A stretch of 64,000 bases of DNA, taken from NCBI GenBank assembly GCA_951406725.2, contig OX597832.1:20708001-20772000 (forward strand). Direction: 5' to 3'. Below are positions 13,789-61,426 of the stretch, piece after piece. How positions within the stretch are numbered: position 1 is the first letter of the stretch; every line of letters begins with the position of its first letter. The position numbers and the translations under genes are program-made. This stretch comes from Octopus vulgaris (lineage: Eukaryota). Below the pieces are notes generated by a model. The model saw only the letters and a list, made by a program, of their open reading frames with translations. It was not told the DNA's origin and ran no database searches.

Positions 13789-14935
13789 ACAAAACCTACA
13801 AAGGCATCAACGAAGATGGCGGCTATGACAACGACACAGTATTACAATACGATACAAAAAAAAAGACAACTGATACAACAAACAAATTTTAAAAAAGAAA
13901 TATATATATATATAGGAAGTGACAACAAACTACGACAATGGTAGTGATGACATTTATTCTTGAAACAAGAGGATTTGTGGCGAAACAGAAGAACTAAAAG
14001 AGCACGTCATAGTAGATGTGCCAATTAGAATATTCTGCAAATGAAACCTGCCAGGCCAAGATAAGAAGGCAATTTTGGGCATAATATGAACATTCTTCAA
14101 CAGATTAACCCTTAACAGAGCCTTAATCGAAGAAAACAACGAAGATTCGCGAAACGAATTCTGATCCATTCACAGGAAAAGAATGAGATTCTTGTGAATT
14201 TTCGAAAGAGATGCTATCATTACAATGTAACAAAAATTAACGATGATATGAAAGAAAACATATAAAAAATATTTAAGAAATTATAAATATATAAGGAAAA
14301 AAAATAGAAATAAATTGGAAGGAGAGCAAAAAATATACAATGATAAAAAGAAATTAGAAAGCCCTAAGATGTGATACAAAAACAAAATTTGTGCAAAATG
14401 CATGGCAATAATAACAGACAAATATATCTTGTAAAATAAAAGTAAGCTGTTGGACGTAAAGAAAGAATGGTTGAAAAGCGAATTAATAGAGGAAATAAAA
14501 AGGAAAAAATGTGAATAGTTTGGAAACAATGAAAATATATAATAAAACACTGAGAGTTAAAAATCACTAACAGCAAAAATATCTAATATCTAATAGCCAA
14601 GAAAATTAGAAGAAAATTACAAAAACTTAAAAAAAAGGAAACGTGTTGAGATAGTGCAAGGGTTGGGTTGGTGGCTTAGTAAGATAGGAGATGCTGCAGC
14701 AGGAGGGGAGGACTGGGAATGGTAAACTGGTTAAAATACTTGACCAGGAAAAAATGACAGAATGACTGAAAATGAATTGCAGCAATGTCATTATAACATG
14801 ATAGGAAACCTTATGTGTTATGGAGTGCGGCATATAGTAAAAATTGTAAATAAAATAATAGAAAATTCAAGGGTAGAAAATGAAGTATGAATGCATATAA
14901 TATATACACATACACAAATCTACCTATAAATTTGC

Positions 14936-14984
<49 letters not shown>

Positions 14985-15336
14985 CGTTTGTATATGTGTG
15001 TAAATGAGGAATTTAAAACTAACAGCAAAAAAGTAACATGGTGTTTTTTTCTTCTATCCTTTTCAAATAACAATAAAATAATAAACTAAAGCTGAAGAAA
15101 AAAAAATGGCAGGAACTAAGAGAAAGTATTATTTGTAATGAACAGTGAGATAATGAAAATGACGCCAGCAATTAGCAGTACATAAAACTATCGCATCATT
15201 CTCAAGAGAGATGACTGTAAGAGCCAGGAAAAAAAAAAAACTCTGAACAAATAGAAAATGAAATAAATAAATAAATGATAATAACATCAATAATAATAAT
15301 AATAATAATGATGACAATAACAATAATGACAATAAC

Positions 15337-15367
<31 letters not shown>

Positions 15368-15814
15368 GTAATAATAATAGTAATAATAATAATAATAATA
15401 ATAGTAATAATAATAAAGTTGACGATGATAAAGATGAAGTAAAGCAGGCTTTTTTTTTTGTAAGACAAAGCTTCCTCATATTGCCACCACACAAACACAG
15501 ACACACACACAGAAATAAAGAAAAATTCGTAATGGATGTAATACGTATTAAAGGAGTCTGATGTGCGGGTAAACGAATCGCTTCGGAGCTGAGAAGGAAA
15601 CACCTCCTAAAGGGGCTAAAAAAAATTGCATGAATTTATACAAATACACGTATAGATTCAGATGTATATGCACCCGCTTTGCATATATGAAATGAAACTA
15701 TATTTTATATGTATATATGTGTGTATACATCTATATATATACATATATATATAAACATATATACATCCATATATCAGTATGTCTCTATCCCTCTCTCTCT
15801 CTATATATATATAT

Positions 15815-15967
15815 AATTAGTGTACCTTTATACACAAAAGAGGTGACCTTAATAGGACACCTTACATGCTAAAAGGAACAGTCAAAGCCCAAAGCTTTGA
15901 CTGTTCCTTTCAACATGTAAGGTGTCCTGTGAAGGTTACCTGTTTTATGTATAAATGTACACTAATT
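15815..15967. repeat. 153-bp palindrome (74-bp arms, 5-nt loop)
   Basis: The arms differ at about 8 of 74 positions by eye. Loop ccaaa. Confidence 0.92.
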
Positions 15968-16051
15968 TTATATGAAAAATGTGTTGTCTGTTGACTATTT
16001 TATGCATGCTAGCTACTGGTAGAAAAATTTTTCTACTCGATATATATTGTC

Positions 16052-16147
<96 letters not shown>

Positions 16148-16890
16148 TTCATACATATATATATACATATGTGCAAATTTCAACATATACGTATATAAAT
16201 ACATACATAGGTCATATATATATATATATACATACATACATACATGCATACATACCTACAGTCACATATAGACATAGAATGCATTTGTATGAAGAAATTA
16301 TTTTCATCCTCAAAAAACAAAGTCAGACAACAAAGCAAGCGTATATGCGCACATTTTGGGTAACACACGTACGAAAAGAAATACTAATCCAAAAGAGAAA
16401 TGCATGTGTTAACAGGAGATGGTATTGTAATAAGACACAATACATTATATTATGCAACAGGCTCTCTGTCCGAAGTTTCTAAACAGAACTAAATATAATT
16501 ATATAGACACACATTCGACACGATGCCCACTAACAGATATAAGCTTGTGTGCTGAAATCTGAACATAATTTTAAACGTAGAAAATAATATATAGTAACAT
16601 ACAAATATTTTATATCCAGTCAACCACAGTTGAAACACTCCTGTCACAACCTGGGAGCTTGAAGACTGCTTTAATGCAAGAAAGTATACTAGTCCCTTAA
16701 TATTTTATATTCAATATTTCATCTATTCAATAAAACAATCGATACTTCATTTTATTATGCTATATATATTATTTATACTATATATTGTATATTCTACATT
16801 AATACTATAAAGAATATAAATAAGACATAAAAAACAGAGTTGGAATTCCTTTGAATGATACATATCCCTCTATACACAATCATACAAACC

Positions 16891-16959
<69 letters not shown>

Positions 16960-16981
16960 TAAGTGGGTGTTTGTTCTTTCT

Positions 16982-17393
<412 letters not shown>

Positions 17394-17774
17394 CTTCGAT
17401 TAAAACCACCAATAGAAGAGAATATGACCAAAGAAATGCGTGTATTCCATCCTATGCATTTGTGGTAGGTTATACAATGGCGAAACATGCCACCCCCTCA
17501 AAATATGGGTAGACGAACTTCGCAAAGCTGTGACAAGAGGAGATATTGATAAATCGGGTATAGCTGACCATGTGTGGAATAATGGAGACCACCTCCCCCT
17601 GTGGGGTGAAGTTAAAATAATAGACAGAGAACACCACTAAAAATACGAAAACTAAATGAAGCAGCACGTGTGTTCGGACGCAACAACCTCCTAAACAGAC
17701 CGAGTGTAGATATAGTTATGAGTAGCGTATGGGAGCCGATATTAAAGAAGGATAGGAAAATATTAGATTTATAA
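17394..17774 (+). pseudogene. Penelope-like element C-terminal GIY-YIG endonuclease remnant
   Basis: Reads [52 protein letters not shown]...KIIDREHH*, then after a frameshift IRKLNEAARVFGRNNLLNR...ILDL*. The VY..C.C...Y.GET, R/K..E and LN pattern fits PLE GIY-YIG domains. It carries a stop and frameshifts. Confidence 0.85.
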
Positions 17775-17788
17775 GACCTAAAATAAAT

Positions 17789-18108
17789 TCACTGCATATG
17801 GCGTAGTGGTTAAGAGTGTGGGCTACTAACCCCAAGATTCTGAGTTCGATTCCAGGTAGTATCCAGAATAAGAATTATGATAATAATAATAATAGTAATA
17901 ATAATGGTAATAATAATAATAGTAATAATAATAATAATAATAATGATAGCAACAACAACATCGAAAAATACCTTAGGAATGGGAACCCAGGTTCGAAATA
18001 TCCCCAGGGCACCTGATGAAGGCTGGAGGGTATATCAGCCGATACGTTGGTGTTAACAACAAACAAGATGTGGACAAATATCCGTCAAATGTAAATAACG
18101 TAAATAAT
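17789..18108 (+). mobile_element. Composite unit: tRNA-like head + (AAT)n + hammerhead-bearing tail (copy 1)
   Basis: A-box tggcgtagtgg at 17799-17809, B-box gagttcgattcc at 17842-17853. The tail is homologous to 61278-61426. Confidence 0.85.
18008..18054 (+). ncRNA. Minimal type I hammerhead ribozyme motif (mutated copy)
   Basis: ggcac-CTGATGA-a-GGCTG-gagggtatat-CAGCC-GAtAC-GTT-ggtgtt. GAAA reads GATA in this copy. Confidence 0.75.
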
Positions 18109-18501
18109 TTCTATTTTAATTCAAAAACTTAATTCGTGAAAGAATCAAATTATTTCAAAAACCTATTGCTGTAGTTATCTATTGATACTCTGAACACAGA
18201 GTGTATATAGAAACAATGAGACTTAAAACAATATTCTTACGCTTCTTTCGTACATTCGTACAAGGATTCTGTAGAGATGATCTATGTGCCAAACTGACAT
18301 CACGTGATTTAAAGTCAATTTGACCGTTTGCTCTACAGTCTCTGAAGACTTGAAGATGTTTATCTGATTGTGAGGTTATGAATTACATCGCAAAATTTTC
18401 ATTAATGATATGCGCGTAAGAATTTATTCAGTACACAAAAAGCTTCTCACATTTCTTCTATTGCTTTAATTTACATACACACGTACGTATACACAGAAAC
18501 A

Positions 18502-18545
<44 letters not shown>

Positions 18546-19199
18546 AAATAGGCATAAATACATATAGTTACACATACATGAATATGTGCATATACATATG
18601 CAAATACGCTCAGATAATGGTATGTATATCTTTATGTTTGTTTGTGTGTGTGCATGTGTCGGTGTGTGTGATGTGGTGTGTACGTGCGTCATTATATGTT
18701 TAATATTATAAGCGTGTCTTTTATTAAATCTCTAACAGGAATATTTAGCTGTTGTGAAATCATTAAGAGGTGTGAATGATATAACTGCTATAATGGCGAG
18801 GAAGGTGAAAACGCCAAACAGGGAAAGGTTCCGGTGCTGTTGTTTGTTTAAATTAAATTTTGGGAGGAGAAACAAACAAAATGAAACGGGCGATTTACTC
18901 CTGAAACAAACAAAATAGATGAAACACAGCATCATCATCATCCTCATCATTAGAAACAGCATCAGCTAACAGAATAGCTGAATGATTAATTTTTATTTGT
19001 CTTTGTTTTAACGATGGTTCTTCTAGTTCAACGCTCGACAGCATAAGATAACCGTGACAGGGGAAGAAAAAAAACGGTAAAGAAAATATTTAGAAGAAGA
19101 AGAACAACAACAACAACATCAACAGCTAAAAGACAACAGGAACGACAGCAATAATAATGCTAATAATAAAGTCACTAATAATAATCTCAAGAAAAACAC

Positions 19200-19203
19200 A
19201 GCA

Positions 19204-19274
<71 letters not shown>

Positions 19275-19282
19275 GATAATAG

Positions 19283-19317
<35 letters not shown>

Positions 19318-19452
19318 CTAACAATAATAATAATAATAATAATAATAACTATAATAATAATAATGATAATAATAATAATAATGATAATAATAACAATAAT
19401 AATGATAAACATAATAATAATAATAATAATAATAACAATAATAATGATAATC

Positions 19453-19485
<33 letters not shown>
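19200..19485. repeat. (AAT)n microsatellite
   Basis: Directly visible. Confidence 0.95.
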
Positions 19486-19653
19486 GTAGTATTTTTATTG
19501 TTTCTGTTATCATCATTATCGCTGTTGTCATTTTCTTGTTAATATTGTAATTATTGTTGTTATTGTAACTGTTGGTATGGACGTTATTGATACCATCAGC
19601 ATTACGATTTTTCTTTGTATATCATCCCCTTCATCCTCCGCTGTAGCAGTAGC

Positions 19654-19708
<55 letters not shown>

Positions 19709-20526
19709 ACAGTAGTAGTAGTAGTAGTAGTAGTAGCTGTTCTTGTTGTTGTTGTTTTTGTTTGGGTATTGTTATATAACGAAACTCAAAAGTGAGCTTG
19801 AATACAGATTTGAGATATGGCGGACAAGTGACAAAAACGAAAAAGCATGCATCAAACATAGACACACATGCACACACCCGTACACAGACACACACATACA
19901 CACACTCACATCTCTCTCTCTCTCTCTTTCTCACACACACACACTCCCATATACACACACACGGATTAACTTTTCCCAACCCCGCCAAAAAATTGAGGCA
20001 AAATATTACGTAAACATGCATGGGGTTAATTTTTCTTTTCTCTCCCTTAATCGTTATCAAGCTTCTTCAAAAAATATTTCACTTGTTGTTGTTCTTGTTC
20101 TGCTTGTCATTGTTGATACTATTGCAGCTATCATTGTTGTTGTTGCTGTCGACGATTTATTTCTTGTTTGAGGTTTTTACGCTTTTGTTCCTCCCTTTAA
20201 TTTTGAAAAGAATTTTTACAAAATTCTGTGAAAAGATTTTTGCGAAAAGACAATATGGAGGTATTTTCCTTTCCTTTCTTCTCAGTTTCTTTGTTATCTG
20301 GAACATTATGGAGAGTATCATTTAATTATAAGCTACTGCTTTGGGTTGGTTTGGAGGTCGAAGAGGAATTTGATAAACTTTTCTTTTTTTCTTTTTTGGT
20401 TTTTACAGAATGTTGATCAGGCATGTTTGCAAGAAATTTGCTTCTCATTTACATGGTCTCGGGTTCCATTCTGTGCCACCTTGGCCAAGCTTCTTCTACA
20501 ACAGTTTCAGTGACTGAAGCAAGTTG

Positions 20527-20573
<47 letters not shown>

Positions 20574-20716
20574 ACCATTCTGCTGTAAGACCTCTTTATA
20601 AATGTTCTGGTATCTTTCACAGCCTTGGATTATAGTACAATATAATATAATATATTTATGTATACAATATATTATAATGTAACGTAATATATATACATAT
20701 ATAAAATATATATATA

Positions 20717-20759
<43 letters not shown>

Positions 20760-20897
20760 TATAATTTAGGGTATCTAAAAGATACCACAACGCTTGAAAT
20801 AGCAGCCAAAACTTGACTCTAAATCACATTAAATGTTAATACACCACCAGGGGAGAAGACAAAAAGACAAAATAAACTAGCAAAAAATTACTGGATA

Positions 20898-20955
20898 ATT
20901 CGAGATCCCGGATTTCTGATTCTAAATAAGAAATGCTTTGCCTCATCAGTTGAAT
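20898..20955 (-). ncRNA. Minimal hammerhead ribozyme motif
   Basis: Minus strand: attcaa-CTGATGA-g...-GAA-ATCC-g-GGAT-C-tcgaat. Core intact, palindromic stem III, stem I 5 of 6 paired, stem II decayed. Confidence 0.6.
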
Positions 20956-21974
20956 ATACACAGCACATAAATACAAGTGTATATATACATATATATATAT
21001 ATATATAACATGCGAATACTTACATATACGAACGTATACATACATATATATGCACGTATGCACACGACTAGTTTCAATTGCCCGCCTAAAACTCCACGTG
21101 CGACACGGTCAAATATATCACCGCAGTGAATATAAGGATGAAATAAATATATAAATTTATATAAATAGGATCAGATCGTTATTTAAATATCGAACTTATC
21201 AAGTGCCCAGCATGGGAATAAAAACCTTCGCATGCCAGATTAGTGAATTATTGATACTTGTGTCCTATTAATATTTTCCCTCCCATTTTAATGTTTTCTT
21301 AATTTAGCCGCCCTAATTATTGTTATTTACATAGATTTTATAATGCAAACGGCGCCCAAGATTTTCGAAATTTTCAGTAAATTTCTTATGCAAAACTTAA
21401 TGAGATTGGACTTACAATATTTAAAATAAACATAGAAATGAATGGTCTTGTGATGCGTAATGAATTAGTAACGAAGGTTTGTGATGACAACATAATAAAC
21501 ATATTATCTCCACGTGATAAATTTCTTGCAGATATTTTTCTTCATACATTTCTTACAGATAAATCCTTCTTTGTCAGGAAATCAACGGTGCCGTGTAGAC
21601 ATACGTAAACTTATCGTCTGCAAACATGTAAAAGCCTGGCATTAACGTAGGGTAGACATTTGTGAACGCATCGTCTGCTTCAGTAAAGAGAAATGTAAGC
21701 ACTTTGAAAATAACGCATCGTCTGCGTCGGGTGAGACATGAAACCTTGTTTACAAGTATATAGACACATGTAAACACCACTCTGTAATTTTCTTGATATA
21801 ATTTGGATAGAAATCTATAGATATCATTCGTAGTACAAAGTAGCATTATTACCAAAATATAACAATGTTATCGAAGCTTGATATAAACTGACGAATCATA
21901 GCAACAATGCATTCCATACTAATCCTTCATTGTAGTCTTCATTTAATTTTATTTATTTATTTATTTATTTATTT

Positions 21975-22259
21975 ATGTGCCCTTTTGAAGCCTAGCCAGG
22001 CTCATGCACCTGGTTTCCCGGTTTCTGTGGCGTATGTTTTCCCCGCAGCTGAGCAGCGTTATTCAAGAAAGAGGAAGAAAGAGTGAGAGAAAGTTGGGGC
22101 GAAAGAGTACAACGGGGGTCGCCACCACCCCCTGCCGGAGCCTCGTGGAACTTTAGGTGTTTTTGCTCATTAAACATACACAACGCCCGGTCTAGAAATC
22201 GAAACCGCGATCCTCCGACCGTATGTCCACTGCCCTAACCACTAGGCCTTTGCGCCTCC
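21975..22259 (-). mobile_element. tRNA-derived SINE family C, tail type 1
   Basis: Minus head ggaggcgcaaaggcctagtggttaggg...gtttcgatttc. (TATT)n lies at the 3' end (about 21950-21975). Confidence 0.88.
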
Positions 22260-60925: not shown

Positions 60926-61136
60926 CCAATACTCATGTACAGTGCAATTTTATTGGATTTGCGGAAGATAATGGAAATTTTCCAGGACTCGACTCTAGGT
61001 ACATTTTATTCTTACGGTATTAAATTTAGCACAGCTAAGTAGCAACGAGATGATGAAGGAAAAAGTGCAAAAAAGTACCACTTCAGGAATACCGTCACTG
61101 AGCATAGTCCATTAAAAATAGAATGGAAATATGCCC

Positions 61137-61220
61137 GTGGTTAAGAGCGCGGGCTACTAACCCCAAGATTCCGAGTTCGATTCCTAGCAGTGCCTGAACA
61201 ACAACAACAACAACAACAAC

Positions 61221-61277
<57 letters not shown>

Positions 61278-61426
61278 TTAGGAATGAGAACCCAGGTTAG
61301 AAATTGCCCCAAGACACCTGATGAAGCCTGGCGGGTATATCAGCCAAAACATTGTGTTAACAACAAGCAAGATGAGGACAAATATCCGTCAAATGTAAAT
61401 AATGTAATTAATGTAAATAATGTAAT
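61137..61426 (+). mobile_element. Composite unit: tRNA-like head + (CAA)/(AAT)n + hammerhead-bearing tail (copy 2, 5' end clipped)
   Basis: gtggttaagagcgcgggctactaaccccaagattccgagttcgattcc, then HHR at 61313-61358: GACAC-CTGATGA-a-gcctg...cagcc-aAAACaTT-GTGTT. Confidence 0.85.

Follow-up and report, generated by a model that had tools for sequence, protein, structure and literature searches.

A Penelope/Poseidon-type retrotransposon of Octopus vulgaris with a tRNA-derived head and very many SINE-like copies: a proposed explanation in outline

Penelope/Poseidon retrotransposons, such as Penelope of D. virilis and PAc of Anolis carolinensis, have a single ORF with an N-terminal domain, an RT (reverse transcriptase) and, C-terminally, a GIY-YIG endonuclease (PMC8557442), and are further characterized by partial-tandem pseudo-LTRs, inverted 5' pieces and a minimal hammerhead ribozyme at the start of the ORF (PMC11167929, PMC4209133). 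In the anole Poseidon, moreover, the first part of the ORF contains two 3' end/RT start sites at a distance of about 30 nt from each other, and a tail of 30-40 nt is described for Penelope-like elements (PMC11167929). The octopus element that we describe here shares all these properties. Unlike Penelope and PAc, it has in its pseudo-LTR a tRNA-derived head with an A-box and a B-box, at which the 5' ends of its copies pile up. The mapped promoter of D. virilis Penelope is of a different kind, namely LINE-like, TATA-less and internal (PMC2377424).

The usual products of RNA polymerase III (Pol III) are short non-coding RNAs only. Pol III promoters derived from small RNAs have been described in non-coding parasites, namely SINEs and TRIMp3, and a 2024 account argues that for autonomous elements Pol II is obligatory, Pol III being weakly processive (PMC10886601). 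The TRIMp3 elements (Cassandra, Helenus, Ajax) resemble the octopus element in having such a promoter in a terminal repeat, but they are non-autonomous LTR elements of 0.3-1.3 kb (PMC10886601), whereas the octopus element is an autonomous, coding Penelope-like element (PLE) of 2.65 kb. In the Schistosoma repeats Sm-alpha, named as a precedent in the sequence-only reading of our locus, and Sj-alpha, a Pol III-type promoter is followed by a hammerhead; however, these repeats are non-coding and the review describing them names no autonomous partner (PMC6765202), whereas the octopus cassette is part of an autonomous element and its hammerhead is of the minimal PLE type, placed in the ORF. With tRNA-derived SINEs that carry the tail of a LINE partner, the short octopus copies share a tRNA head, a simple repeat and a tail recognised by the partner RT. 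They differ from these SINEs in lacking poly(A), in having PLE-type inverted 5' pieces, in a tail that corresponds to the start of the partner ORF and not to a 3' UTR, and in showing no sign of separate masters. The octopus SINEs OK, OR1 and OR2 were reported by Ohshima and Okada in 1994 (as cited in PMC4824008), and in PMC13282606 repeats are counted at the class level only. Metazoan non-LTR retrozymes likewise are short repeats with a hammerhead, for which mobilisation by PLEs has been proposed, but their hammerheads are canonical and they form tandem monomers, which the octopus copies do not; the account in PMC7229834 mentions no tRNA-derived head for them. In keeping with the sequence-only reading, to which no such architecture was known in a described PLE, our search of the literature, as distinct from Repbase and Dfam, found no PLE with a tRNA-derived head; the family itself may already be catalogued. 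The nearest precedents found were Sm-alpha and the elements Cassandra, Helenus and Ajax.

The window, that is, the whole stretch of 64,000 nt of O. vulgaris DNA that was analysed, contains at positions 17394-18112 a decayed, 5'-truncated 3' fragment of a Penelope/Poseidon-type retrotransposon (Table 1). All the parts named in the sequence-only reading were recovered on the + strand, including the stop of the GIY-YIG-like frame. A (TA)n microsatellite adjoins the endonuclease remnant on its 5' side, and the endonuclease frame is split by frameshifts into two pieces (17428-17637 and 17616-17774). As for the GIY-YIG identity proposed for this frame, the first piece aligned with a GIY-YIG-bearing relative (P0067, PF01541; 38% over 68 aa, E 2e-14), but neither piece matched Pfam alone. 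The 3' end of the fragment is close to the proximal cluster of 3' ends in the family (+240 to +246 in the numbering introduced below). The hammerhead of this copy, with a predicted cut after 18048, is probably inactive, because its sequence has GATA in place of the catalytic GAAA of the family and one extra G. There is no endonuclease sequence 5' of the second, short cassette of the window.

Table 1. Positions of the parts of the Penelope/Poseidon-type fragment and of a second cassette in the window
Feature	Position	Strand	Remarks
Penelope-like GIY-YIG endonuclease C-terminal remnant, 5'-truncated, frameshifted	17394..17774	+	88-89% identity to family column majority
TAA stop of endonuclease remnant	17772-17774	+	
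Spacer, stop codon to head	17775..17791	+	Family length 31 nt; shortened by deletion in this copy
tRNA-derived head, decayed cloverleaf	17792..17866	+	A-box and B-box intact
A-box TGGCGTAGTGG	17799-17809	+	
B-box core GTTCGATTC	17844-17852	+	
(AAT)n/(AAC)n linker	~17867-17959	+	Length variable
Start of the element's own ORF, repeated in 3' pseudo-LTR	17979..18112	+	ATG 17979-17981
Minimal type I hammerhead within ORF start	18008..18054	+	CTGATGA 18013-18019, helix II, palindromic ACGT helix III
Second, stand-alone short cassette	61130..61426	+	Starts with hairpin remnant; head A-box partly deleted, repeat linker, hammerhead tail

The head does not have the intact cloverleaf of a functional tRNA gene. 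ARAGORN found no tRNA gene in the window, nor in the 60 of 80 related loci that were scanned, the head scored only 13.9 bits against the Rfam tRNA model (cut-off 29, E 6.1), and mismatches are present in all four stems of its cloverleaf. Neither of the two intervals searched for the hammerhead family (14000-22000 and 17700-18160) gave a match in Rfam.

In the 2.8-Gb genome, exact matching with three 29-nt motifs gave 200 matches for the endonuclease motif, 1,876 for the head motif and 4,292 for the hammerhead motif. As each of the three reversed motifs gave no match in the genome, the cassette pattern is far beyond chance. Among the 30 first-listed of the 200 endonuclease matches, 28 run on into the body of the head, one ends 5 nt into the head and one in the spacer, and no alternative 3' end after the endonuclease was found at these 30 loci. 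The endonuclease-to-head junction is a family-wide trait, and the chance adjacency of two insertions, which 28 such copies in 30 contradict, can be rejected. The proposal that a tRNA-derived, promoter-like head is built into the terminal repeat of a PLE is supported by this fixed junction. The 99 segments compared diverged from the column majority by 3.4-8.3% (median 5.6%), and therefore no young copy was seen and the family may be silent. A search with P0001 did not reveal a headless sister PLE family in the same genome: the listed matches showed 53-71% identity, and the 30 loci fetched among them all map onto the unit of the tRNA-headed family. Consequently, this search gave no date for the capture of the head. 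Contigs of runs X17, X19 and X8 (organism labels B, C and D) span the same endonuclease-head junction (L129:1380-1950), indicating that the family is common to related species.

The family unit, taken as the column majority over 90 fetched loci and numbered from tRNA position +1, consists, in transcript order, of the head with its A- and B-boxes, (AAT)n, the ATG, the hammerhead, the RT and GIY-YIG ORF, the stop, the spacer and the next head. The head extends from +1 to +75 and is followed by the linker, the ATG is at +118, the hammerhead core at +152 with a predicted cut after +187, the stop near +2623, and a spacer of 31 nt separates it from the next head. The sense strand of 2,654 nt carries in this column majority one unbroken frame of 835 codons. 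As the sequence-only reading had anticipated, longer copies extend upstream into a Penelope reverse transcriptase; natural open frames of 562 aa and 465 aa match RVT_1, and homologs of the ORF carry PF00078 and, in some cases, PF01541. The closest relatives are P0001, P0166 and P0190, at about 60-67%, along with P0004 and P0149. A PDB sequence search with the protein alignment A1 gave weak RT matches only. The ORF is composed of an N-terminal domain, a DKG motif (PADKGNAT), the RT, a short linker and, C-terminally, a GIY-YIG with a CCHH motif (CSCG...EEHRK...ADH); the names of both motifs are those of PMC8557442, where Neptune and Nematis are described as having a zinc-finger-like linker between RT and endonuclease. 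Alignment A1 shows no conserved Cys in the columns of this linker. Judged by its motifs and layout under PMC8557442, rather than by a tree with named references, the element is of the Penelope/Poseidon type.

Pseudo-LTRs, inverted 5' pieces and a tail of 30-40 nt are all present in copies of the family. The hammerhead, expected from the start in the terminal repeat and found inside the first codons of the ORF in the family unit, follows the minimal motif definition of PMC4209133: CUGANGA, an extra unpaired base, helix II, GAAA, a palindromic helix III and a helix I of 4-5 bp. Its N7 position (+156), a tolerant site of the core, is T or A and differs among copies. The N-termini of P0004, P0124 and P0149 (about 55% identity, near a barnacle-named cluster) retain the peptide TPD.G...PKRCV of the hammerhead region, which suggests that the ribozyme-in-ORF layout predates the tRNA-headed family.

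Although the initial description took the tRNA-like and hammerhead segments for a 3' cassette, the better reading makes them the transcription unit's 5' end. The ATG that follows (AAT)n is in frame with the ORF, so that the cassette holds the ATG and the first ~50 codons, and copies with the head upstream of the ORF do exist. In L242, a copy that covers +1 to +614, the ORF follows directly on the head. The same holds for L267, which passes from the end of the endonuclease across the head and reaches +674. L381 has its full length and carries a piece of the head at each end, and L250 and L260 each join a piece with its start at -6 to position +505 of the ORF. None of the 60 loci mapped on the unit is a long copy with the head upstream, and therefore such copies are a minority.

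The ends of the copies were examined in 93 of 100 listed head matches, from 90 loci in the first 143 Mb of contig C1; among the seven omitted was L003, a known endonuclease-attached long copy. Similarity broke off no more than 35 nt upstream of the motif in 81 of the 93 heads and continued in 12, the endonuclease-attached share being 13/94 with L003 counted. The 81 include an endonuclease-attached copy with a deleted spacer (L043) and a copy that keeps part of the spacer (L068). The commonest 5' ends of these 81 heads were tRNA +1 (12 heads), -3/-4 (13 heads) and -6 to -8 (13 heads). Similarity was lost at 4.8% per nt in the head-start zone, at 0.8% per nt in the next 75 nt (5 events), and at 0.24% per nt upstream of the endonuclease motif. 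About half of the segments sampled by the hammerhead motif (n = 30) reach the head, and none extends beyond -19. The 5' ends are scattered over ~8-20 nt and do not fall on a single base. Their upper edge, a G at -6, is 13 nt before the A-box, which is the start-to-A-box spacing of B2, ID and Alu. The end of the spacer and the first bases of the head form a small hairpin, an imperfect palindrome across the junction. An attempt to read the spacer and last codons as a decayed inverted head did not reach significance (P 0.11 and 0.10).

Downstream, the tail is present in 81 of the 93 heads, and the 3' ends form two clusters, at +240/246 and at +271 to +280, separated by about 30 nt within the first part of the ORF. 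In 57 of the 93 heads, an inverted piece of the element is located just upstream. These inverted pieces, the clustered 3' ends and the tail make it most likely that the short copies were inserted by the Penelope element's own protein. Short copies, which consist of the tRNA head, a simple repeat and the ORF-start tail and have no poly(A), outnumber long ones by about 7-9 to 1. The suggestion that the cassette could be mobilised on its own was borne out insofar as stand-alone cassettes (81 of the 93 sampled heads) far outnumber long copies, but the short copies seem not to be an independent SINE lineage, because they share their subfamily variants with long copies: a comparison of 99 long with 135 short segments revealed no diagnostic site, and both groups have the variants at +64, +156 and +225 in the same linked combinations. 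Differences in conservation between the two groups reflect the motif-based sampling of the short one. Segments starting at the hammerhead cut, as would be left by cleaved templates, were not in excess: in 327 segments, the 5' ends had no peak at +188 and a flat distribution from +100 to +205.

Among the 12 genome tRNA copies compared, which form an incomplete set, the head matches Arg-TCG best, with 46/74 identities. Both boxes of the head match the consensus. A strict A/B-box pair was absent from all 80 related loci from other organisms. In related PLEs from other organisms (L301-L380, e.g., L304, L305, L326 and L353), the pseudo-LTRs are often rich in T and hold several TTTT upstream of the hammerhead, whereas the linker of the tRNA-headed family is A-rich. 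The 2,654-nt sense strand contains 13 TTT and no TTTT, whereas 2.9 TTTT would be expected in the ORF from permutation of its own synonymous codons (P 0.025). A composition null gave P 0.002, but it over-predicts A runs as well, and G4 runs are likewise absent from the sense strand. Three decayed natural open frames had four T4 runs in 4,044 nt. In 51 control frames of at least 350 aa from the 80 related loci (metagenomes and other organisms), at least one TTTT was found in 50, with a mean of 4.0 per kb; the exception was L304 (473 aa), and another control had one in 830 aa. The TTTT deficit is modest. In the comparison for avoidance of T4-creating variants among subfamilies, which had no power, 0 of 54 sites were polymorphic. 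A weak terminator-like site, TCTTT, is located at +348; in B2, a terminator of this type halts about half of the transcripts (PMC12101331). In three RNA runs, which were unstranded and had been added by species label, the signal followed copy number.

We propose that the tRNA-derived head, located in the pseudo-LTR about 120 nt upstream of the ATG of the ORF, acts as the internal promoter of the element, and that transcription initiated at the head gave rise to the observed pattern of copies (a probability of roughly 0.6); the polymerase reading it would probably be Pol III. In support of the proposal are the intact A- and B-boxes in a head with decayed stems, the piled 5' ends and the lack of TTTT. 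Arguments to the contrary are the modest size of the TTTT deficit, the weak terminator-like site at +348, the spread of the 5' ends on a hairpin that also drives fold-back junctions, the Pol II argument of PMC10886601, and the LINE-like promoter of D. virilis Penelope. The start of transcription would lie ~0-7 nt upstream of tRNA +1, with the RNA extending into the ORF. The protein of the element would then bind the RNA near the ORF start and begin reverse transcription internally, at +246 or +273, as was shown in vitro near the ORF start for the anole Poseidon (PMC11167929). Initiation at the first such site and run-off at the RNA's 5' end would give SINE-like copies of ~250-350 nt, and initiation where the site is repeated, in its second, 3' copy, on tandem or read-through RNA would give long 5'-truncated copies like that of the window. 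The hammerhead is probably dispensable for insertion, given that 5' ends are not enriched at its cut, in line with the anole element, for which cleavage is dispensable (PMC11167929). In this way, the tRNA-headed Penelope/Poseidon element with its large crop of SINE-like copies is explained in outline.

How far Pol III would transcribe is a more tentative matter. In the fullest form of the proposal, which we put somewhat short of even odds, the element would have switched to Pol III, and Pol III would make the full coding RNA, a 2.65-kb RT-endonuclease unit purged of TTTT, which would also spawn the SINE-like copies. On the same tentative footing, the pseudo-LTR would contain a captured tRNA promoter, SINE and engine would belong to one transcription unit, and SINE-like copies of the same transcript would number in the order of ten thousand. 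Alternatively, Pol III may make only short, head-initiated RNAs, ending at +348 or in the flank and retroposed by the Penelope protein, with the coding mRNA made by Pol II. We consider this a little less likely than the fullest form. It requires no long Pol III transcript and agrees with the ratio of short to long copies, and a short RNA that ends at the TCTTT at +348 would contain the head, the hammerhead and the two RT start sites. However, it leaves the lack of T4 throughout the ORF unaccounted for, and L242 continues past +348. As the head-promoter step is common to both, this alternative overlaps with the probability given above and differs for the long mRNA only.

More doubtful is the explanation in which the head is a mere passenger of the pseudo-LTR. 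Transcription would then be by Pol II or tandem read-through, and the pile-up of 5' ends would be due to the spacer/head hairpin, through stalling of the RT or folding back of the cDNA there. The palindrome across the junction, the fold-back or inverted joins there in many short copies and the scatter of the apparent 5' ends are all consistent with this, as are the LINE-like promoters of described PLEs (PMC2377424). Nevertheless, a block by structure should halt the RT as it reaches the hairpin at its 3' foot (~+10) and not at +1 to -7, and many copies start at +1 beside unrelated DNA or other cassette pieces. Moreover, the retention of the A- and B-boxes while the stems decay would not be expected of a passenger, and the TTTT deficit is left unexplained. 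Least probable is a separate SINE master with a tRNA head, which would have taken over the Penelope tail, given rise to the short copies and, on one occasion, entered the autonomous element by recombination. There are thousands of stand-alone copies with head and tail, a few of them with target duplications (clear in 3 of 28 copies without an inverted partner: L055, L058 and L098), and several short copies start with a perfect ATATGCCC hairpin, unlike the spacer of long copies. Against this, the 135 short and 99 long segments are not separated by any diagnostic substitution and have their subfamily variants in common, and the 12 of 93 heads without the tail share no alternative one, nor was a donor SINE that combines this head with a different tail found among them. 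By analogy with the anole element, RNAs that end at the RT start site would also be expected to lack the downstream binding region.

If the head-promoter proposal holds in its fullest form, an autonomous Penelope element with a Pol III promoter would break the Pol II rule set out in PMC10886601, and would show in what way translation of an uncapped Pol III RNA is possible. It would also mean that SINE-like and Sm-alpha-like elements have a way of arising straight from a PLE's own 5' end. Even the weaker reading leaves tRNA-headed short elements on the scale of the genome, inserted with Penelope marks, and a sharp prediction of the start site.

Some further observations concern composite insertions and neighbouring repeats. 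The upstream pieces of composite insertions end recurrently at ORF position +505 (L247, L250, L260 and L262), +431 (L249, L252 and L261) or +392 (L269 and L270), as if the RT re-primed at preferred sites after run-off. Other abundant tRNA-type SINEs adjoin L044, L052 and L055 downstream or sit inside the endonuclease of L135, and one SINE of this type, by or inside family copies, has what we take to be a CORE-like stretch. In the window, similar translated stretches at ~17070-17130 and ~22030-22150 suggest another short repeat just 5' of the locus, and a B-box-like motif is located near 17195-17210, upstream of it.
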